Source: an uncultured Gammaproteobacteria bacterium (GTDB lineage Bacteria; Patescibacteriota; Patescibacteriia; Magasanikbacterales; UBA922). Taken from it: a stretch of 64,000 bases of DNA. Within the stretch, counting starts at the first letter, position 1. Every line of letters begins with the position of its first letter. The translations under genes were made by a program, and so were the position numbers. The notes under the pieces were generated by a model, which searched no databases, had not been told where the DNA came from, and saw nothing but the letters and a program-made list of their open reading frames with translations. Location of the stretch: assembly GCA_965231005.1 (NCBI GenBank), contig OZ246405.1, positions 295,204 through 359,203 on the forward strand. Direction: 5' to 3'. Of this stretch, positions 731 through 47,883 are shown one piece after another.

Positions 731-747
731 AAATGATTGATAAAAAT

Positions 748-780
748 AGGTCCCAAAAAAGGACTTATTTTTTTATTTTT
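748..780 (+). terminator. Rho-independent terminator after the first CDS
   Basis: Hairpin AGGTCC-caaaaaa-GGACTT followed by a T-run. Confidence 0.4.
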
Positions 781-887
781 AGCATGCCACGAGGGCGCGC
801 CAATTCTAGATTTCTTGCTGCCACGTAAAGGCACTTCGTGCCCACGTGGCACTCAAAGGCGCTCGCAAGCTCGCGCCTTTTCGTGGT
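781..887 (+). ncRNA. conserved structured element A, copy 1. Nested helices with a UUCG-capped hairpin; function unknown.
   Basis: TGCCACGAG...GCGCC...[GCCACGT-AAA-stem-UUCG-stem-ACGTGGC]-CTCAAA...CTCGCGCC-TTTTCGTGG. The outer CCACGA/TCGTGG and GGCGCG/CGCGCC arms are complementary. A second copy lies at 31813-31918. Confidence 0.35.
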
Positions 888-902
888 TGACAAAACTGAT
901 AT

Positions 903-2303
903 TTGTGGCATACTTCTATATACAATATGCGCTATTTTGGATACAAAATACTCTTAGCAATCCTCCGTTTCTTCATGTATATAAAACGGGGGCTTTTTTG
1001 GCTATGGGATCGTGCGTGGCCTGTATTGCAAATTATTGGAAAATTTTATAATGATACACTTGGTTTTTGGTTCTACAAAATAACATTTTTTTTAAGACGG
1101 AGAATTGCAAGACTTATTGAGCCATGGAGAGAAGATATTGTTGACGTGTTTGGAAAACGGTCGACACTTCAGTTTGTTGTACTACTTGTCGCAGTGGTTG
1201 TTCTTATTCCACATACAAAATTATATAGTCAAGATACAGCGTCTATTCCAGGACGAAAAACATTATTGTATGAAATGATTGGTCCAGGAGAATTTGATTT
1301 TGACATTGAAGAAGTTGAAATTGATATCACAACACTGTCAAAACAGGATGAAAGAACATGGACACAAGGTTCTGTTGTTTCTCCACAAGTTTCAACAGGT
1401 GCACAAGACGATATTGTTGTTCCTCAAGAGATTGCAAGTATTAGTGCAGGTGGAACAGCAATAAGTAAACCAACAATTATTTCTGGAGATGCTGTTGCAA
1501 CCATTCCTGCAGGACAAACAGCACCATCGTCTGATAGATCAAAAGTTGTTACTCATGTTGTTTCAGCTGGAGATACAATTGGTGCGATTGCAGAATCATA
1601 TGGTATTAGTGTTGAAACAATTTTGTGGGCAAATAATTTGTCTGTTCGTTCGTACATACGTCCAGGAGACTCGCTCAAGATTCTTCCATCAACAGGTGTC
1701 TTACATAAAGTGAAGAGAGGTGAGACCTTGTCTAAGATTGCAAAAACATATGGTGCAAAAACAGAGGATATTATTGAAAAAAATAAATTGCAAAACGATG
1801 GATCAGATATTGTTATAGGAGAACAACTCATCATTCCTGGTGGAAGAAGACCACAACCAGTCAGACGAGTTGCATCTACACGTCGATATACATCATTGAG
1901 TAATGTTGCTGCTCCACCTCCATCTGTTGCAGCGCCTGCAGGGTCAGGGTATCTTTGGCCAACAAATGTAAGACGGATTACCCAATACTATGGTTGGCGC
2001 CACACTGGACTTGATGTTGCTGGGCCGCTTGGCTCTCCAATTTATGCATCTCGTGCTGGTCGTGTTATTAAGTCACAATGTGGATGGAATGGTGGATATG
2101 GTTGTCATATTGTTATTGATCATGGTGGTGTACAAACACTTTATGCGCATAATTCTCGTAACTATGTAAAAGTTGGTCAGCAGGTTTCACAAGGACAAAC
2201 AATTGCACTTATGGGATCAACTGGTCGGTCAACAGGTTCTCATATTCACTATGAAATTCGTGTGAATGGAAGACGGCAGAATCCGTTGCGATACATTAGA
2301 TAA
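903..2303 (+). CDS. LysM-domain M23 family metallopeptidase (two LysM repeats plus a C-terminal M23 peptidase domain), with an N-terminal TM segment
   Basis: LysM motifs: VVSAGDTIGAIAESYGIS and HKVKRGETLSKIAKTYGAK. M23 motifs: HTGLDVAG ... HIHYEIR. The start could be a later Met. Confidence 0.85.
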   Translation: MWHTSIYNMRYFGYKILLAILRFFMYIKRGLFWLWDRAWPVLQIIGKFYNDTLGFWFYKITFFLRRRIARLIEPWREDIVDVFGKRSTLQFVVLLVAVVVLIPHTKLYSQDTASIPGRKTLLYEMIGPGEFDFDIEEVEIDITTLSKQDERTWTQGSVVSPQVSTGAQDDIVVPQEIASISAGGTAISKPTIISGDAVATIPAGQTAPSSDRSKVVTHVVSAGDTIGAIAESYGISVETILWANNLSVRSYIRPGDSLKILPSTGVLHKVKRGETLSKIAKTYGAKTEDIIEKNKLQNDGSDIVIGEQLIIPGGRRPQPVRRVASTRRYTSLSNVAAPPPSVAAPAGSGYLWPTNVRRITQYYGWRHTGLDVAGPLGSPIYASRAGRVIKSQCGWNGGYGCHIVIDHGGVQTLYAHNSRNYVKVGQQVSQGQTIALMGSTGRSTGSHIHYEIRVNGRRQNPLRYIR

Positions 2304-4183: not shown

Positions 4184-5706
4184 TCATTGAATTCTGGTCC
4201 GATATTGCAATGCCTCTGCAATATGTTCGGTTTTAATTTGTTTTTCACCAGCAAGATCTGCAATTGTTCTGCCTAACTTTAAAATTCTATGATAACTTCT
4301 TGCAGAAAGCTGCATTTGTGTTACTGCTTGTCGCAACAAATTTGTTGATGCAGTATCGAGCACACAATATTCTCGAATTTGCTTATTTGTCATTTCACTA
4401 TTAGTTTTGCAAGATGTTTTTTCAAATCGTTTGTATTGAATAGTTCTTGCTGCTTCAACACGGAGCCTAATGTTTTCTGAAGATTCTTCCAAGTCTTCTT
4501 TTCGCAGTTTTTCAAAAGGAATACGGGGAACTTCAACATGTAAGTCTATTCTGTCGAGGAGTGGTCCACTTATCTTTTTCTGGTACCGTGCAATTTGAAT
4601 TGGAGAACATACACATTGCTTTTCTGTGTCTGTTGCAAAACCACAGGGACAAGGATTTTGACTTGCAATTAAACTAAATTCTGCAGGAAATGTTATTGTT
4701 CCTTGTGCTCGCGAAATTGTAATCACTCCATCTTCAAGTGGTTGGCGGAGTGTTTCTAATACTTGTCTTGGAAATTCAGGAAATTCATCTAAAAATAATA
4801 CACCGCGGCGTGCAAGAGAAATTTCTCCTGGACGAGGAAATGTTCCTCCACCAACTAGCGCGACACCACTTGCACTGTGATGTGGTGCACGAAATGGTCG
4901 TTCGGTAATGAGTGGTTTATCTTGTTTTAGTAATCCTGCAACTGAATAGACTTTTGTTACTTCAATTGCTTCATCAACGGAAAGTCTTGGAAGGATTGTT
5001 GGAAACGTTCTAGCAAGCAATGTTTTTCCAGAACCAGGTGGTCCATTTAGAATAATATTATGACCTCCGCTTGCTGCGATCTCAAGCGCGCGCTTTACAA
5101 ACGATTGCCCTTTTACATATGCCATGTCTAGCTCATATTTTCCATGCGTAAACCACTCTTCAATTGGTTGTGGTTTTAATTTTGTAATTATTTTTTTCTT
5201 TTGTATGTGCTCCACAAGAGCATGAAATGTTTTACAGGATAAATTGAAATATCAGAAATAACACTCGCCTCTTTTGCATTTACTGCAGGGACGAACAGTT
5301 CTTTGTATCCTTTTTCTTTTGCAAAAATTGCAAGAGGAAGAATACCAGTTGTGTGGCGCAGTGTTCCGTCGAGTGCAAGTTCACCAACAAAAAGAGCGTC
5401 AGAAATATCAACGCCCTTTATTTTTTGACTTGCTATAAACATTCCCACTGCCATTGGCAAATCATATGCTGTTCCTGATTTTCTCACATCGGCTGGAGCA
5501 AGATTAACAATAACACGACTATTGTATGGAAATGTAATTCCAGCATTTTTCCACGTTGTACGAATACGATGCTTTGCTTCTTGTACAGCAGCATCTGGCA
5601 ATCCAATAATTTGATATCCTGGCCATGTGCCAGCAATATCTACTTCAACAGTAATTGGTTCACAATCCAAACCAAGAACTGCTACAGAGTTTATCTTTGT
5701 AAACAT
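4184..5706 (-). pseudogene. comM: comM/yifB (Mg-chelatase-like AAA+ ATPase, competence protein ComM), split by a frameshift in an A7 homopolymer
   Basis: The N-terminal Lon-like domain (ORF 5188..5706) and the AAA+/ChlI domain with GPPGSGKT (ORF 4184..5215) are in different frames. They overlap by 28 nt around a T7/A7 run at 5191-5197. Normally this is one ~500 aa protein. Confidence 0.7.
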
Positions 5707-6607: not shown

Positions 6608-6994
6608 TTACACCTCATCTTTCAATGTTTTTTTACAACTAACGCAAGATGATGATGTTGGTCTTGCTTGAAGTCTAGGAATGCTAATAGGTTCATCACA
6701 GTATTTACAAATACCATAATCGCCTTTTTCAATTCTGTCGAGTGACTTATTAATATCACGCAATCTTTTTTCAAGTGTAATCTCAAGTGACTTGCTTACT
6801 TGGTATTGTGCAACTTCTTGTACACTATCGTCCACTTCGTCACCAACATCTTCAAATTTTGCATTGTAATCACCTTCAACATGAGGATTCTTTTCTGAGA
6901 ATCCTGAAAGTTCTTTTTGAAGTCGTTCTCGTTCTTCTAAAAGCTGTGCTTTTATAATATCTAGGTCTTGGAGCTTGTGTTTTTTCGCAGCCAT
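6608..6994 (-). CDS. DksA/TraR family C4 zinc-finger protein
   Basis: N-terminal coiled coil and a C-terminal CKYCDEPISIPRLQARPTSSSCVSC (CxxC...CxxC). Confidence 0.7.
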   Translation of the reverse strand: MAAKKHKLQDLDIIKAQLLEERERLQKELSGFSEKNPHVEGDYNAKFEDVGDEVDDSVQEVAQYQVSKSLEITLEKRLRDINKSLDRIEKGDYGICKYCDEPISIPRLQARPTSSSCVSCKKTLKDEV

Positions 6995-15548: not shown

Positions 15549-15589
15549 GTATAGGCTGTTATTATTATTTTTGTTTTTATATTGGATTT

Positions 15590-15653
15590 CAGATTGTGCT
15601 CTAGCCTCAGCCAAAGGCTGATCCGCCTCTGGCGGAAACTGAGCTACACTCCG
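15590..15653 (-). pseudogene. tRNA-Pro 5'-end fragment (CGGAGTGTAGCTCAG) fused to a hairpin-rich insert
   Basis: The first 15 nt are identical to the tRNA-Pro 5' end. Hairpins CCGCC-agag-GCGG and CAGCC-tttg-GCTG follow. There is no anticodon, T-arm or 3' acceptor. Confidence 0.35.
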
Positions 15654-15689
15654 ATGTGTTTTTTCACATTGTGAAGTGTGCCAGTTTAT

Positions 15690-15775
15690 CCCAACTGTCC
15701 CGAAGCCTCGACTTTGTCGAGGGTACGGGACTCCGACTGAACGCTTTGCGTTCACGTCGGAGAGCTACACTCCGA
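15690..15775 (-). pseudogene. second tRNA-Pro 5'-end fragment (CGGAGTGTAGCTC) fused to a strongly structured insert
   Basis: Contains a 13-bp stem TCCGACGTGAACGC/GCGTTCAGTCGGA and a GTCCCG...CGGGAC helix. Confidence 0.3.
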
Positions 15776-15838
15776 TGCTTCATCAATGCTTTGCAGCGCA
15801 AGCGAGTGTGCCTGCACTTCGAAGCCTTGGCGAAGAAG

Positions 15839-23167: not shown

Positions 23168-23343
23168 GATGTTCTCCAGATGAGTGTACCGGTGTTGTTC
23201 ACTGGCACGGTTTGGGTTGATCTGTTGCCAAGCGTAGCGGAAAAAGAGGTGTATGTCAATAATGAAATAAAAAAAAACAGGCTATTCACCTGTTTTTCTT
23301 TGAGCTACACCTGGCCTAAAGGCCAGGCAAGGACTCTTTTTTG

Positions 23344-23395
23344 TGGAGCGGCAGACCGGACTTGAACCTGCCTGCCGGCAGGCAGGCCGGCGACA
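23344..23395 (-). repeat. element B copy 1: tRNA-Gly-like 3' end (T-arm plus acceptor plus CCA) fused to a perfect 20-bp palindrome
   Basis: The reverse complement reads GGTTCAAGTCCGGTCTGCCGCTCCA, which is one mismatch from the tRNA-Gly(GCC) acceptor arm. It is preceded by the palindrome CCTGCCTGCCGGCAGGCAGG at 23367-23386. Confidence 0.5.
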
Positions 23396-23405
23396 ACAAA
23401 ACAAA

Positions 23406-29062: not shown

Positions 29063-29284
29063 ATGCCAACCATGAAAAGACGTATAAATGTCACACTCCC
29101 AAAAACAATAGATGCTGTGTTAGAAAAAGTTGCCATGCGTGATGGTGTTCCGATTGCAACGAAGGCATTGGAGCTCCTTCGTACTGCTCTGGAAATAGAA
29201 GAGGATCAAGTGTGGGACAAACTTGCAAAGAGTCGAGATACAAAAGATGCAAAATTTGTTAGTCATGAAAAAGCTTGGCTATGA
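29063..29284 (+). CDS. ribbon-helix-helix type II antitoxin
   Basis: N-terminal RRINVTLPKTIDAVLE (an RHH beta-strand). It overlaps the toxin start by 10 nt. Confidence 0.6.
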   Translation: MPTMKRRINVTLPKTIDAVLEKVAMRDGVPIATKALELLRTALEIEEDQVWDKLAKSRDTKDAKFVSHEKAWL

Positions 29285-29556
29285 AATACCTCATTGCCTA
29301 TCACCAGGCAGTGGTGAAGGAGGACATTTCAAAATTAAGTAGTACTCATAGGAAGAGGATAAAAAAAGCAATTGAGGATAAGCTATTTGAACATCCAGAA
29401 GTTTTTGGGAAACCACTTAGAAAGTCTTTAAGAGGATATAGAAAATTGCGAGTTGGTGATTATAGAGTTATTTTTCGAATTGAGAAAAAAAGGGTAAAGA
29501 TATTTATTATCGAACATAGGAGAGTTGTCTATGAAGAAATCCACAAAAGATTGTGA
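29275..29556 (+). CDS. RelE/ParE family type II toxin
   Basis: LRVGDYRVIFRIEKKRVKIFIIEHR. Confidence 0.7.
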   Translation: MAMKYLIAYHQAVVKEDISKLSSTHRKRIKKAIEDKLFEHPEVFGKPLRKSLRGYRKLRVGDYRVIFRIEKKRVKIFIIEHRRVVYEEIHKRL

Positions 29557-29598: not shown

Positions 29599-30180
29599 AT
29601 GAAACCAAATGAAATTCCTCTTAGACTCAGTCTTCTAAACGTCACACTTAAAGGACTGACTTTTGGTGCAAAAAATCCAAATGACCTTTCAGACGAGGAA
29701 ATTTTTGAGTTGTATAAAAAAGCACGTAAAGAAGTTGAACGACCATTTGATCAGCTAATGAAAGATGCAGAAGAAGAATTTGGTGAGAATGTTAAAACCC
29801 TTACCAATCACCAAGGGTATTACGCGGTATATAAAGAGGTTCCAACCAATTCGCTCCATTTTGATGAAAGCCATTCTCAACTTGAAGAATTCAGAGGTAC
29901 GTCTGTAAAGCGAGGCGAATTACTAGTTGGTTTTTATAGGAAACATAAAGATCATCCAGAGCTTAGAAAAAGTGTAGATTTTATTTCCAAACACATGGAA
30001 TTCTTCAATAAGTATGTTCCAATTATCGTGAGAAAGAACGGCGGTTCGTACGAAGTAGTAGAAGGAAATCACAGGGTTTTTGCAGCAATAGAAAATGGAG
30101 ATGAATTAATTCCTGCAATAATAGAAACTGAGGATAAACCAGAAGATCAATTGACTAGTCTTGATTTTGGAAAGATCTGA
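29599..30180 (+). CDS. ParB-like nuclease domain protein
   Basis: YEVVEGNHRVFAAIENGDELIPAII matches the ParB/Srx N-terminal domain consensus. Confidence 0.5.
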   Translation: MKPNEIPLRLSLLNVTLKGLTFGAKNPNDLSDEEIFELYKKARKEVERPFDQLMKDAEEEFGENVKTLTNHQGYYAVYKEVPTNSLHFDESHSQLEEFRGTSVKRGELLVGFYRKHKDHPELRKSVDFISKHMEFFNKYVPIIVRKNGGSYEVVEGNHRVFAAIENGDELIPAIIETEDKPEDQLTSLDFGKI

Positions 30181-31593: not shown

Positions 31594-31812
31594 TCGGAAT
31601 ACCCGAACGGTGCTCACGGCAAGTTCGGGAGCATCAAAAGAACATCTTAGAAAGGTGTTTTTTTGATATAAAAAACACCCCGACCAGGCAGGCGCCCCCT
31701 CCTTCGCTCATCTCTATGCTCGCTACGCTTCGCATCGGTGAGCTTCGGCGGGCAGGCGCAATCGAACTAGAGTAAAACAAAGACTCCCCTTAGGGGAGTT
31801 TTTATTTTGGAG

Positions 31813-31918
31813 CGTGCCACGAGATGGCGCCCATTGGAATATTGTCGCACGTGGCCACGTAAAATGACCTTCGGTCATCACGTGGCTCACTCAAAATGGC
31901 TCGCGCCATTTTTCGTGG
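31813..31918 (+). ncRNA. conserved structured element A, copy 2
   Basis: Same architecture as 781-887. The inner hairpin is ATGACC-TTCG-GGTCAT, against GGCAC-TTCG-TGCC in copy 1, so the changes are compensatory. It directly follows a terminator at 31770-31800. Confidence 0.35.
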
Positions 31919-31950
31919 AGCGGACCTGCCTGCCGGCAGGCAGGCGACCC
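31916..31950 (-). repeat. element B copy 2: tRNA-Gly(UCC) acceptor-3'-end-plus-CCA-like fragment fused to the same 20-bp palindrome
   Basis: The reverse complement reads CCTGCCTGCCGGCAGGCAGG-TCCGCTCCA. GTCCGCT matches the 3' acceptor strand of the adjacent tRNA-Gly(UCC). The palindrome lies at 31925-31944. Confidence 0.5.
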
Positions 31951-32024
31951 TGCCTACGCTTTCAGCTCCGGCAGGTAAACTCCATCTCAGCAAGTTCAAT
32001 TCCTTGCCCGTCAGGCCCAAACTA

Positions 32025-32052
32025 AAAATCGCCCACCCTTTCGGGTGAACGA
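32025..32052 (-). terminator. terminator of tRNA-Gly(UCC)
   Basis: Minus strand reads CACCC-gaaa-GGGTG, then GGCGATTTTT. Confidence 0.5.
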
Positions 32053-32062
32053 TTTTCAGTAG

Positions 32063-32133
32063 AGCGGACGACCGGAATCGAACCGGCGTCATTGGCTTGG
32101 AAGGCCAAGGTAATACCATTATACCACGTCCGC
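32063..32133 (-). tRNA. tRNA-Gly (UCC)
   Basis: GCGGACGTGGTATAATGGTA...anticodon loop CTTCCAA...GGTTCGATTCC...CGTCCGCT. Confidence 0.9.
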
Positions 32134-32174: not shown

Positions 32175-32203
32175 AGTATAGTGCTTTTTCTTTTTTTTGT
32201 CAA
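32175..32203 (-). promoter_or_regulatory. sigma-70 promoter of tRNA-Gly(UCC)
   Basis: Minus strand reads TTGACA, a 17-nt spacer, then TATACT. Confidence 0.55.
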
Positions 32204-45480: not shown

Positions 45481-47883
45481 ATGAAGATGACAAGAATCAT
45501 CATGACGATCGCGGCGTGTCTTGCGATCATAAGCGGATGTGCTGCTGATTCAGTAGCCGATGGTCCATCGACGAGCACTGCACAGGATGCAGTCGCTTAC
45601 GACGACGGATCCATCCGTCAGTCCGACATCGAAAGTCTCGACACAGGAAAGGGCGACATTCAAAACGACATCGGTGAGCTGGACTCGATCGAAAGCAACC
45701 AGACCGAGGACGCTGTAAAGTTGCCTCCGGAATGTATCGTTGACAAGGATTGCGACGATGGTGTTTCGTGCACTGTCGGTAAATGCAACTCGCTTGGTGC
45801 TTGTGTCTATAACCCAGATGCACAGCTGTGCGACAAGGGCAATTTCTGCGAGTTGTATTACTGTGACGTCATCAAAGGTTGCGTGTCCACGAGTCTACCA
45901 GATGGTAAGGATTGCGGTTCATACGGCTGTCTCAAGAAGACCTGCGTCAGCAAGGAGTGCATCAGCAAAATCATTCTGAGTACATGTAAGGACGGTGATG
46001 TCTGTAGCCAGGCACACTGTAACGCACTTGGCGTCTGTGAATACTCGATCAAGTCGGGTTGCTGCAAGGAAGATAGTCAATGTGAAGACGGTCTGTACTG
46101 CACGCTTAACAAGTGCAACAAGTCTGACAACACGTGCTATGAGCTGCTCGCTAACTGCGACGATGGCAATGTTTGTACGGCTGACTACTGTGATGAAAAC
46201 GCGCCCAAGGACAAGAAGTGCAAGCATGTTCCGATCAAGGATTGCTGTAACAGTGCCAAGGATTGTGTGGATGATAGTAAGTGTAATGTCGACAAGTGCG
46301 TCAAGTCGTGGCACAAGTGCGTCTACGCAACAAAGGACTGCAATGACAACAAGCCGTGCACTAAAGATTTCTGTGACGTTGACACAGGTAAGTGTGTGAA
46401 CACAACCATCAAAGGATGTTGCACCAAGCTTACGGATTGTGGCGTGACTCAGTCGCACGACAAGACGGGCTGTCTGTTCACGCTTTGTAACCCGACTGTC
46501 GGTCTCGCTGGCACTTGCACCACCGTCAATGCAAAGGATGGATCTGAGTGTCTCGACGGTGACCTGTGTAACGGAGCAGATCACTGCGAAAGCGGGAAAT
46601 GCGTTCCAAACAAGAAGACTGTTGTCGCGTGCGATGATGGGAATCTCTGTACCACGGATTACTGTACTCAGGGGGCAAATGGCGGGTGCAAGTTTGTTCC
46701 GGTGAAGAGCAAGACTCCGTGTAGCGATGGTAATGCCTGTACTTCTAGCAAGTGTTTCGATGGCTTTTGTAAGGTGTGGAACCAGAATCTTTGTGATGAT
46801 GGTGTCCAATGCACGCTGAACTCCTGCGCTTCGATCGCTCTTCCTGGCCCAGGCGGAAAGTCGTACAAGCAGTGTTTCCTCCCGACTTTTGTTCACTCAC
46901 TTTGTAGCGACAACAAGCCCTGCACTGTAGATACCTGCACGAAGAAGGGATGTGTGAACACGCCAAAGAAGTGCGACGACGGGAATTCCTGCACCACTGA
47001 TTCTTGCGACAAGAAGACCGGAACGTGTAAGTACACTCCGATTAAGGATTGCTGCGCGAAAGACAGCGATTGTGTTGGTGACAAGTGTACTCAAGTGTTG
47101 TGCAATAAGAAGACAGGGAAGTGTGGGACCACTCTCCTCCATTACAACGATTGTATGAGCAAGGCACCGAACTGTACCACGCGTATTGCATGCCACAGAA
47201 AGAGCGGGGCATGTAAATACGACGAGCTGGTGTCCGGAAAGGAATGGGTGTCCATTGGTGTTGGTGTCTGTGTGGATACAAGCCCTTGCTCTGCGCAGAA
47301 ATGCGATCCGAAGACGGGTAAGTGCGTGTCCAAACAAGTCTGCGATGACGGGAACAAGTGCACCGACGACAGTTGTCAGGGTGGAAAAAAGTGCAAGCAT
47401 GTTCCGGTCAAGAATTGCTGCAACACCGCTAAGGACTGCGACGACGGCAACCCATGCCGGATTTACAAGTGCCAGAAAGAGTATAATCATTGCACCTACG
47501 TCCCGGCCAAAAACTGTGACGATGGAAACAAGTGTTCGGTCGACAGTTGCGACGAAAAGACTGGCAAGTGCAAGCATCTGCCGTTTATCGGGAAGGGTTG
47601 TTGTGAAAAGCCTACGGACTGTAACGACAACAACAAGTGTACCATCGAAAAGTGCGAGAACTTCAAGTGTTCTAACAAGCAAAAATGTGACGATCACAAT
47701 CCATGCACAGTTGACACTTGCGATAAGTGGGATGGAAGTTGTAGCTTCAAGAAAACTGACCCAACATGCTGTAAAACAGGTGATGATTGCAAAACTCCAC
47801 CTAACTTTTGCCCTAGTTGGATCGCTGTCTGCGAAAAGTCCAAGTGTCTATATTTGAATGGTAAAGGAGATTTCTGCAAATAG
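45481..47883 (+). CDS. large secreted lipoprotein built from about 25 Cys-rich repeats (CDDGNxCTxDxC ... CC), similar to the Myxococcus cysteine-rich repeat; GC-rich island gene
   Basis: RBS CCAGGGGGT. Lipobox LAIISGCA. Tandem CxDGNxC(T/S)xDxC modules. The long antisense ORFs are artefacts. A terminator follows at 47907-47950. Confidence 0.65.
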   Translation: MKMTRIIMTIAACLAIISGCAADSVADGPSTSTAQDAVAYDDGSIRQSDIESLDTGKGDIQNDIGELDSIESNQTEDAVKLPPECIVDKDCDDGVSCTVGKCNSLGACVYNPDAQLCDKGNFCELYYCDVIKGCVSTSLPDGKDCGSYGCLKKTCVSKECISKIILSTCKDGDVCSQAHCNALGVCEYSIKSGCCKEDSQCEDGLYCTLNKCNKSDNTCYELLANCDDGNVCTADYCDENAPKDKKCKHVPIKDCCNSAKDCVDDSKCNVDKCVKSWHKCVYATKDCNDNKPCTKDFCDVDTGKCVNTTIKGCCTKLTDCGVTQSHDKTGCLFTLCNPTVGLAGTCTTVNAKDGSECLDGDLCNGADHCESGKCVPNKKTVVACDDGNLCTTDYCTQGANGGCKFVPVKSKTPCSDGNACTSSKCFDGFCKVWNQNLCDDGVQCTLNSCASIALPGPGGKSYKQCFLPTFVHSLCSDNKPCTVDTCTKKGCVNTPKKCDDGNSCTTDSCDKKTGTCKYTPIKDCCAKDSDCVGDKCTQVLCNKKTGKCGTTLLHYNDCMSKAPNCTTRIACHRKSGACKYDELVSGKEWVSIGVGVCVDTSPCSAQKCDPKTGKCVSKQVCDDGNKCTDDSCQGGKKCKHVPVKNCCNTAKDCDDGNPCRIYKCQKEYNHCTYVPAKNCDDGNKCSVDSCDEKTGKCKHLPFIGKGCCEKPTDCNDNNKCTIEKCENFKCSNKQKCDDHNPCTVDTCDKWDGSCSFKKTDPTCCKTGDDCKTPPNFCPSWIAVCEKSKCLYLNGKGDFCK

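Follow-up and report, generated by a model that had tools for sequence, protein, structure and literature searches.

A structured, palindromic element occurs twice in a 64,000-nucleotide stretch of DNA, here called the window, from an uncultured Gammaproteobacteria bacterium (GTDB lineage Bacteria; Patescibacteriota; Patescibacteriia; Magasanikbacterales; UBA922). The stretch covers positions 295,204 to 359,203 of the forward strand of contig OZ246405.1 in GenBank assembly GCA_965231005.1, and it recurs in Logan assembly ERR2281801. The original prediction placed two copies at 781-887 and 31813-31918. Both were located there, and a covariance model built from relatives matches 779-889 (copy A) and 31809-31921 (copy B). 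No third copy was detected in the 64 kb with filters off, the next-best match reaching at most 12.6 bits (E ~0.5 or worse). Copies A and B align with 76% mean column identity, flanks included, and the similarity reaches a few bases upstream of the start first proposed, to a (G)TGGCNNG motif ahead of CCACGAG. They are members of an uncatalogued palindromic repeat family of Patescibacteria (Magasanikbacteria and relatives). The helices (P1 to P4 and H5) and other parts of the two copies are as follows.

779-889, plus strand: copy A, whole element (covariance model, 94.5 bits, E ~1e-23); an orphan, with no tRNA adjacent.
787-792 with 881-886, plus strand: copy A P1, CCACGA with TCGTGG; P1 is 99% paired across relatives.
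794-799 with 872-877, plus strand: copy A P2, segment X (GGCGCG) with CGCGCC, from covariation.
820-826 with 844-850, plus strand: copy A P3, GCCACGT with ACGTGGC, from folding and covariation.
827-829, plus strand: copy A AAA bulge.
830-834 with 838-842, plus strand: copy A P4, GGCAC with GTGCC, around a UUC loop at 835-837.
820-850, plus strand: copy A hairpin unit, made of P3, AAA bulge, P4 and UUC loop.
855-880, plus strand: copy A H5, AAAGGCGC at 855-862 with GCGCCTTT at 873-880, and a 10-nt loop.
31809-31921, minus strand: copy B, whole element (covariance model, 99.0 bits, E ~1e-24); 3' trailer of the tRNA-Gly(tcc) unit.
31817-31822 with 31913-31918, plus strand: copy B P1, CCACGA with TCGTGG.
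31824-31830 with 31903-31909, plus strand: copy B P2, segment X (ATGGCGC) with segment Y.
31854-31860 with 31880-31886, plus strand: copy B P3.
31861-31863, plus strand: copy B AAA bulge.
31864-31869 with 31873-31878, plus strand: copy B P4, ATGACC with GGTCAT, and a UUC loop.
31854-31886, plus strand: copy B hairpin unit, made of P3, AAA bulge, P4 and UUC loop.
31893-31900 with 31905-31912, plus strand: copy B H5, AAAATGGC with GCCATTTT, and the loop TCGC.

The differing innermost stem noted in the original prediction does keep its pairing in both copies (GGCAC/GTGCC in A, ATGACC/GGTCAT in B). The UUCG tetraloop assigned to it is, on folding, a 3-nt UUC loop with a closing C-G pair. H5, which was absent from that description, lies directly beside P1, and in it an A-tract and a segment X' pair with segment Y and a U-tract. 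In copy A, X (794-799) is a direct repeat of X' (858-862), and H5 and P2 compete for 873-877. The 3' strand of P1 in this copy (881-886) corresponds to the end that touches tRNA or transfer-messenger RNA (tmRNA) genes in relatives; here it adjoins a promoter-like site. The minus strand of copy B reads CCACGAAAA from 31918 to 31910. Compared with shuffled sequences, the folds have z = -2.6 (copy A) and -4.5 (copy B) on the plus strand and -3.2 and -4.4 on the minus strand, folding strength being about equal on both strands.

As had been supposed, the element matches no RNA family among those searched: neither copy is matched by Rfam, tRNA or tmRNA models. At the gathering score, Rfam 15 finds only seven tRNAs in the whole window, and matches to the two copies at E up to 10 stay at chance level (at most 21 bits against cut-offs of 42-85). 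At seven related loci Rfam returned tRNA and tmRNA only, and ARAGORN and Rfam call no tRNA or tmRNA gene within the elements, their calls falling at the element borders. No match to the element was obtained by blastn in phage and plasmid collections (the sole pattern match in a viral contig was set aside as chance, in G+C-rich coding DNA), and full-text literature searches gave no description of such an element. The constant foot motif, CCACGWAAA, has 33 matches in the window against 29 expected and is not enriched, and the reading as an uptake-sequence-like or genome-wide motif was rejected. CCACGT(G)AAA has some resemblance to parS; the context and the copy pattern do not fit.

Relatives were sought with the pattern CCACGTAAA..ACGTGG..TTCGTGG, in which no tRNA sequence is included. 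Among 185,579 species genomes it gave 19 loci, ten clear homologs and nine chance matches. All ten homologs are in Patescibacteria-type metagenome-assembled genomes (MAGs): four carry the label Magasanikbacteria and one the label Gammaproteobacteria, three belong to the unclassified MAG nzgw370 and two to a "Patescibacteria group" MAG. A slightly stricter pattern gave 23 loci in Joint Genome Institute (JGI) metagenomes, about 20 of them true. Chance matches aside, the relatives found by these scans are confined to Patescibacteria-type genomes and metagenomes. A covariance model from 18 copies, run over 302 kb of loci and the window, added copies that the pattern had missed, leader copies among them, for a total of about 30 distinct elements with lengths of ~75-125 nt. 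The window itself shares ~63-70% nucleotide identity over several genes with a Magasanikbacteria locus (L020; loci are given by L numbers) and with the metagenome loci L025, L027 and L030.

Compensatory changes, claimed from two copies in the original prediction, are present in every proposed helix among 27 distinct sequences. In a model-derived alignment (29 matches), the fold made of P1, P3, P4 and H5 is paired in 96.4% of cells, and both sides have changed in 15-17 pairs (17 of 26 for this fold); these figures come from related sequences, fitted to the model for all helices except P2. None of 500 shuffles reached the observed covariation, and slid controls were 26-51% paired overall and 35-50% for the fold of P1, P3, P4 and H5. 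P1 varies from CCACGA/TCGTGG to CCACGT/ACGTGG and CCAAGT/ACTTGG, and in P3 GCCACGT is replaced by GTCACGT, GCCGCGT or GCCATGT. H5 is 96% paired with both-side changes in 7 of 8 pairs. P2, the pairing of X with Y, was left out of the model, yet it is 95.5% paired and 5 of its 6 pairs have changed on both sides. The X-Y match is usually 6-9 nt, longer than the X'-Y match. Since P2 and H5 use the same strand, Y, they are mutually exclusive, and both appear from the alignment to be under selection. Outside the helices, GUAAA and CACUCAAA are conserved unpaired bases. P2 is missing in L014, where H5 is retained, and a short form in L037 (6870-6943) keeps P1, P2 and H5 with the P3/P4 hairpin wholly absent. 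A kink-turn (3-nt bulge with tandem G.A) was looked for by inspection and rejected, the G.A pairs being on the wrong side of the bulge. Judged from these substitutions, the RNA fold of the element is under selection. The suggestion that it is a terminator or antiterminator module fits a P2 and an H5 that covary and share one 3' strand; that function can be inferred only.

The most regular feature of the family is its position. In 28 of the 30 distinct elements a tRNA or tmRNA gene has its terminus right at the TTTTCGTGG end (ARAGORN, Rfam), and it is always this end, in one orientation, that is gene-proximal. Twenty-three of the 30, including copy B, are 3' trailers or inter-tRNA spacers with the gene on the opposite strand. 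Read in the tRNA sense, their junction is always CCA followed by CG(A/T)AAA and then the hairpin. The CCA is the encoded 3' CCA at tRNAs for Leu, Tyr, Gly, Lys, Thr, Met, Val, Glu, Ser and Pro, and at tRNA-Ala and tmRNA it consists of the last two acceptor bases and the discriminator A. Elements lie between two same-strand tRNAs in L023 (Lys-Arg), L027 and L039 (Met-Gly), L027 (Ala-Phe) and L033 (Thr-Tyr). For these 23, the strand transcribed together with the tRNA is not the plus strand on which the element was originally read but its opposite.

Five of the 30 are leaders, on the gene's own strand, in which UUUUCGU is followed by a GG that overlaps the first two bases of the gene. The genes concerned are tRNA-Asp (L028/L009, L037) and tmRNA (L028/L009, L019, L037). 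In L028/L009, L019 and L037 one copy stands on each side of the tmRNA gene, the two being inverted relative to each other, with the leader UUUUCGU complementary to the trailer ACGAAAA. It follows from the junction sequences that part of the tRNA lies within P1, either the CCA (or CC and the discriminator A) or the initial GG. Among relatives, the CCA of the tRNA is provided by the element or overlaps it. Five of the seven window tRNAs have no element. When the 3' ends of window tRNAs were read, those of Met, Gly-gcc, Gly-tcc, Phe and Pro had no encoded CCA, and only that of Ala had one.

The remaining two of the 30, copy A and L024, are orphans, each flanked by protein genes of like orientation and each with a TTGACA -35 box at the end that touches the gene in the other elements. 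Copy A precedes an M23/LysM peptidase gene, and L024 lies between gmk-like and rplS-like genes; these neighbors rule out L024 as an ortholog of copy A and make it a second, independent orphan. The features around the two window copies are the following.

742-772 (plus) and 764-750 (minus), both strands: terminator-like hairpin beside copy A, with T-runs on both strands (terminator scan).
887-914, plus strand: promoter-like site, TTGACA-16-CATACT with TG, ahead of the M23/LysM peptidase gene.
31783-31799, minus strand: terminator-like hairpin, ACTCCCC-TAA-GGGGAGT then CTTTGTTTTA, closing the tRNA-Gly unit past copy B.
31918-31925, minus strand reading GTCCGCTC then CA: displaced tRNA-Gly 3' end, GAGCGGAC (direct reading).
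31926-32061, no strand: 136-nt insert between copy B and tRNA-Gly, not part of the element.
32062-32133, minus strand: tRNA-Gly(tcc) (Rfam, ARAGORN), the gene that copy B originally adjoined.
32175-32203, minus strand: promoter-like site, TTGACA-17-TATACT (11 of 12 matches), upstream of tRNA-Gly(tcc).

The promoter-like site at 887-914 starts one base past the end of P1 in copy A. At copy B the order on the minus strand is promoter (32203-32175), tRNA-Gly(tcc) (32133-32062), insert, copy B and terminator (31799-31783). The displaced tRNA end, GTCCGCTCCA, precedes copy B on this strand, and the 8-base GAGCGGAC at 31918-31925 is repeated at 32062-32069 inside the intact tRNA-Gly gene. Because of this displaced end and its repeat, copy B is considered to have once adjoined tRNA-Gly in just the way its relatives adjoin their genes, and to lie in its 3' trailer; the 136-nt insertion would be later than that contact, and the transcribed strand of copy B is probably the minus strand. 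The T-tailed terminator placed upstream of both copies by the original prediction exists as a hairpin with a T-run in each case; the one beside copy B (31783-31799) is called on the minus strand only, the plus-strand T-run being visible in the sequence. Among relatives, the L037 unit consists of promoter, 1.5 elements, tRNA-Asp and terminator according to consensus scans. In L028 the element sits between a small gene and tRNA-Asp, a gap of 17-45 nt in element-free genomes.

The 136-nt insert holds the palindrome CCTGCCTGCCGGCAGGCAGG (31925-31944) and a terminator-like hairpin. The element had been suggested as a recombination site for G+C-rich cargo; the insert beside copy B is bounded instead by the 8-bp tRNA-Gly 3' duplication, and because the palindrome is also found at the other, element-free tRNA-Gly gene, the element is not the recombination site of the G+C-rich DNA, which inserted into tRNA genes separately. 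This 20-nt palindrome occurs downstream of both tRNA-Gly genes (31926-32061 and 23340-23400), each time adjoining a displaced tRNA-Gly 3' fragment that ends in CCA. The sites have the appearance of short insertions, or of what is left of integrated elements, which took the place of the tRNA 3' end and carried in a terminator hairpin of their own. Inserts of ~150-190 nt also separate the element from intact tRNA-Ser in L007 (3420-3600) and tRNA-Pro in L006 (7710-7860). They carry a 21-nt (Ser) and a 20-nt (Pro) duplication of the 3' part of the tRNA, T-loop to CCA, which is the signature of integrase-type insertion into tRNA genes. Behind the new tRNA ends are hairpins, an extended stem of which pairs CCA with a downstream UGG. 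The tRNA-Phe/tRNA-Pro spacer of the window (15549-15837, minus strand) is 290 nt long and G+C-rich, with two extra partial tRNA-Pro 5' ends (CATCGGAGTGTAGCTC), one of which runs into a D-arm broken by a hairpin-rich insert. Its make-up suggests repeated insertions into the tRNA-Pro 5' half.

The distribution of the element is that of a dispersed repeat. The Met-Gly junction and the Ala-Phe junction have the element in L039 and L027 and a simple hairpin only in the window. The copy leading tRNA-Asp is present in two lineages and absent in three. Comparison over 64 variable columns often pairs an element most closely with one located beside another gene: the Thr copy of L031 and the Met copy of L039 are 0.90 identical, the tmRNA trailer of L019 and L039 are 0.80 identical, and copy A and the tmRNA trailer of L005 are 0.66 identical. 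Tandem and partial units occur in L017, L021, L031, L037 and L041. The hairpin unit has a constant foot, CCACG(A/T)AAA ... CGTGG, and a freely varying top. A 32-nt unit, CCACGUG-GCUC-GCAA-GAGC-UUUACGUGG, lies within a tmRNA gene (L032 1310-1345, the same as L036 2460-2495) and is missing in six other tmRNAs. These non-orthologous nearest relatives, the presence and absence of copies and the tmRNA insertion point to a dispersed repeat like the repetitive extragenic palindromes (REP) and bacterial interspersed mosaic elements (BIME), or like miniature inverted-repeat transposable elements (MITE). For the same reasons "a functional RNA rather than a decaying repeat", as the original prediction had it, is a false choice: the structure is indeed constrained, and the family behaves like a dispersed repeat too.

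Arrays are found as well. Several tandem units stand behind each tRNA in L017 (7100-7690), L021 (6100-6270) and L035 (7060-7230), from the MAG nzgw370 and one metagenome contig, and they include a perfect 19-bp hairpin that starts at the CCA of tRNA-Leu.

The strand on which the element acts as RNA can be approached from asymmetries in its pairs. Of 21 informative trailers, a small set and not an independent one because the sequences are related, 17 fold better in the tRNA sense (mean 2.3 kcal/mol) and 4 the other way; leaders have no fold bias between strands. Transition mismatches in trailer H5 are without exception A.C on the plus strand and hence G.U in the tRNA sense; aligned columns contain four, L004 and L006 add to these by eye, and the opposite kind does not occur. 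In five trailers a tandem U.C/C.U in P4 on the plus strand is a tandem G.A/A.G in the tRNA sense. In leaders P1/P2 is wholly Watson-Crick, and three of the five H5 hairpins have a wobble or mismatch. The pattern fits an H5 that acts in the tRNA sense behind tRNAs and a P1/P2 that out-competes H5 in leaders. A promoter inside the element, its own or one for a downstream tRNA, was considered and rejected as unsupported; AT-rich -10-like linker boxes occur on both strands, but their spacing to any -35-like hexamer ranges over 12-20 nt, and the scan called none in the window copies.

The explanation given about an even chance of being right is that of a structured repeat associated with tRNA and tmRNA ends, co-transcribed as trailer, spacer or leader, which carries a terminator-like hairpin and a competing long-range helix. 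The element would be co-transcribed with the tRNA or tmRNA, mostly as 3' trailer or inter-tRNA spacer and in a minority as 5' leader, and copy B would be read on the minus strand as a trailer. It would have to fold by itself and spare the tRNA fold, and such independent folding next to a tRNA would explain the compensatory changes. In trailers H5 may act as a terminator or 3'-end hairpin. In the leader and orphan orientation the stronger P1/P2 would block termination at H5, so that the tRNA behind is still made. Copies may arise by enzyme-driven insertion or recombination at CCA-bearing gene ends, in the manner of REP/BIME or MITE. Termination, insulation, guidance of processing or mere toleration are the roles that might be inferred for the element.

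Several observations weigh against this explanation. The proposed co-transcription depends on consensus scans for promoters and terminators, and the terminator scan does not call H5 in copies A and B or in L037, because its A-tract and U-tract pair. P1/P2 is strongly kept in trailers too, where an antiterminator role makes no kinetic sense, and the strand test in leaders is mixed, with one G.U against two A.C on the plus strand. No transposase, integrase, RAYT-like or Y1_Tnp domain was found in 59 open reading frames (ORFs) of the 64-kb window, nor was a clean target-site duplication. The CCA at the distal end is present in only ~70% of copies (it is missing in copy A, L023, L027a, L030 and L033), that at the tRNA-proximal end in all. 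Copies per genome are few and divergent, two in the 64 kb here, without enrichment of the foot motif, in contrast to typical high-copy REP or MITE families.

It is possible, if unlikely, that the element is instead a non-mobile, cis-acting maturation element of the host, in which P1/P2 clamps the tRNA or tmRNA terminus into a processing-stem duplex like those flanking rRNAs. The stem would be cut by RNase III or would guide RNase P, RNase Z or exonucleases; the leader UUUUCGU would pair with the trailer ACGAAAA where both occur, and H5 would be a folding intermediate. The strict polarity and the exact abutment on mature ends are in keeping with this, as a cut between A and CGAAAA would leave a correct end in either case, an encoded CCA or the discriminator. 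In L028, L019 and L037 the leader is complementary to the trailer over 7 bp and another 4 bp, and P1/P2 covaries among orthologous tmRNA trailers of different species. (A long leader-trailer duplex through identical P4 hairpins at tmRNA was also considered and is found in L028 only, not in L019 or L037.) Against this reading, the element is dispensable, as the five element-free window tRNAs and the empty orthologous junctions indicate. The two orphan copies between protein genes, the unit inserted within a tmRNA gene and the loss of P2 in L014 with H5 kept also argue against it.

A site that works as DNA, with GCCAC/GTGGC half-sites and CACGTG cores bound by a recombinase or another protein, is improbable; such a site might be att-like and located at tRNA genes, or might be an insulator that forms a cruciform. 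Each element has five GCCAC-type half-sites, including a distal-end palindrome GTGGC-NN-GCCAC, it works in either orientation relative to transcription, and tRNA 3' ends in these genomes do undergo insertions. Against this, the variable stems keep their pairing by compensatory change, which binding to double-stranded DNA does not need, and the G.U and tandem G.A asymmetries indicate RNA. No recombinase gene was found nearby among 59 window ORFs, and the rest of the window has no excess of the foot motif.

Little credence is given to a riboswitch-like attenuator, in which a factor binds the P3/P4 hairpin with its AAA bulge, stabilizes P1/P2 and prevents formation of the H5 terminator, thereby controlling read-through into tRNA-Asp, tmRNA or the next gene. 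The helices are mutually exclusive and both covary, the unpaired GUAAA and CACUCAAA are conserved, and in 7 of 30 copies H5 and its U-run, in the sense orientation, are directly followed by a tRNA, tmRNA or promoter. The reading direction of the remaining 23 is reversed, with the antiterminator arm made after the terminator. The downstream gene is not consistent either, P4 varies freely, and the short L037 form at 6870-6943 keeps P1, P2 and H5 without the hairpin to which the factor would bind.

The free-standing small RNA of the original prediction is hardly credible. It would be a plus-strand transcript that comprises the hairpin unit and H5 as terminator, runs antisense to the 3' end of the tRNA and starts from a promoter made of TTGCCA in the 5' arm and an AT-rich linker -10. 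TTGCCA-like hexamers and AT-rich linkers are present and one L037 site passes the scan (GTGCCA-18-AATAAT, 9 of 12 matches), but the consensus scan called no such promoter in either window copy, the -10-like box lies at an inconstant distance of 13-20 nt, P1/P2 covariation means that the supposed promoter region belongs to the folded molecule, and the strand tests favor the tRNA sense in trailers.

Several known systems are similar to the element as a structured repeat of tRNA and tmRNA ends. The REP/BIME (REPIN) sequences of gamma-proteobacteria are extragenic hairpin units of ~30-40 nt that form, in direct and inverted order and with linkers, mosaics of ~100 nt; they too are dispersed over many loci, are co-transcribed with neighbors and serve as (putative) 3' hairpins or terminators. 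Units of the present family, of 30-40 nt, stand in direct and inverted order and in tandem arrays, and the composite is similar to a BIME-like mosaic. In contrast to these, the foot here is CCACG(A/T)AAA without a GTAG/GGAG head, copy number is low (two in 64 kb) with no over-represented core, and hairpin tops vary freely between copies of one genome. The strict, fixed-polarity association with tRNA and tmRNA ends, the different phylum and the lack of any RAYT gene within the 64 kb are further differences. ERIC/IRU, Correia, RUP and BOX elements are likewise imperfect intergenic palindromes, of ~100-150 nt, that are transcribed within neighboring messages and differ in presence among related genomes; structure-preserving substitutions occur in ERIC. 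Terminal inverted repeats are well conserved in those families, and target duplications are defined; here only a foot of 6-8 nt is constant. None of those families is tied to tRNA or tmRNA ends. As in MITE families, copies are present or absent at orthologous sites and related copies stand at unrelated sites; P1/P2 makes the ends of the element complementary over 13-16 nt, of which only CCACGA is constant, the remainder varying among copies with its complementarity kept.

H5 resembles an intrinsic (bidirectional) terminator in being a G+C-rich stem between an A-tract and a U-tract, and it lies at tRNA 3' ends or, in orphans, at the end of the upstream gene. Generally it has 5-8 pairs followed by 3-6 U; the H5 of L004, L006 and L021 reaches 8-9 pairs, with 6 U on either strand. 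Some trailers and both orphans are at the end of a unit, others between co-oriented tRNAs or before tRNA-Asp or tmRNA. Several traits set it apart from ordinary terminators: the stem often has only five G/C-containing pairs, a conserved CGUGG comes after the U-run of 3-6 nt, the 3' strand is contested by a distal arm, and a second conserved hairpin is joined to it. In leaders, H5 immediately precedes a tRNA whose expression is needed. Riboswitch and attenuator platforms also have two exclusive helices on one strand, one of them terminator-like and both covarying, but most copies here are downstream of a gene in the reverse sense (5 leaders and 2 orphans of 30 fit), no conserved ligand pocket could be shown, and there is no Rfam match. 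Integron attC sites are comparable in their conserved outer boxes, variable paired center, similar length and location on the 3' side of arrayed short genes. The boxes are CCACGA/TCGTGG here, not RYYYAAC/GTTRRRY, copies can be inverted on both sides of one gene, and no integrase gene is nearby.

Some other features of the window were recorded. Past the terminator beside copy B is a G+C-rich block (31681-31765; minus strand GCGCCTGCC...GGCGCCTGCCTGG) with no second copy in the window by blastn. An 800-amino-acid ORF at 45481-47883, in a G+C-rich patch, encodes seven Dictyostelium-type Cys-rich repeats (PF00526) and has internal DNA repeats at 46213, 47020 and 47386. The ORF at 5753-6130 matches the "23S rRNA-intervening sequence protein" or bAvd-like family and adjoins ORFs at 5191-5706 and 4187-5215, which jointly contain ChlI and Mg_chelatase (ComM-like) domains. 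A ParE-type toxin ORF (29275-29556) is followed by an ORF (29599-30180) with a weak match to a ParB N-terminal domain.

Patescibacteria, or bacteria of the candidate phyla radiation (CPR), have tiny genomes in which very few non-coding elements have been described. The family is absent from Rfam and has strong covariation support. It is a ready Rfam candidate. For annotation some caution is needed, as the element may supply or overlap the CCA of a tRNA or sit within a tmRNA gene. It gives a possible handle on a mechanism of insertion directed to tRNA ends, and its marking of gene boundaries with exact polarity may help show how Patescibacteria terminate, insulate or process tRNA and tmRNA transcripts. 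A more specific proposal, which must be considered doubtful, is that the element colonizes both ends of tRNA and tmRNA genes with fixed polarity, takes the CCA or GG into its outer helix and carries a built-in terminator/antiterminator switch. If this were true, the switch would decide whether transcription stops at, enters or leaves a tRNA or tmRNA gene, or would determine the cleavage of the precursor. The family would then constitute a new class of RNA module in CPR bacteria, linked to tRNAs and either cis-regulatory or mobile, and a bacterial counterpart to the eukaryotic elements that target tRNA genes.

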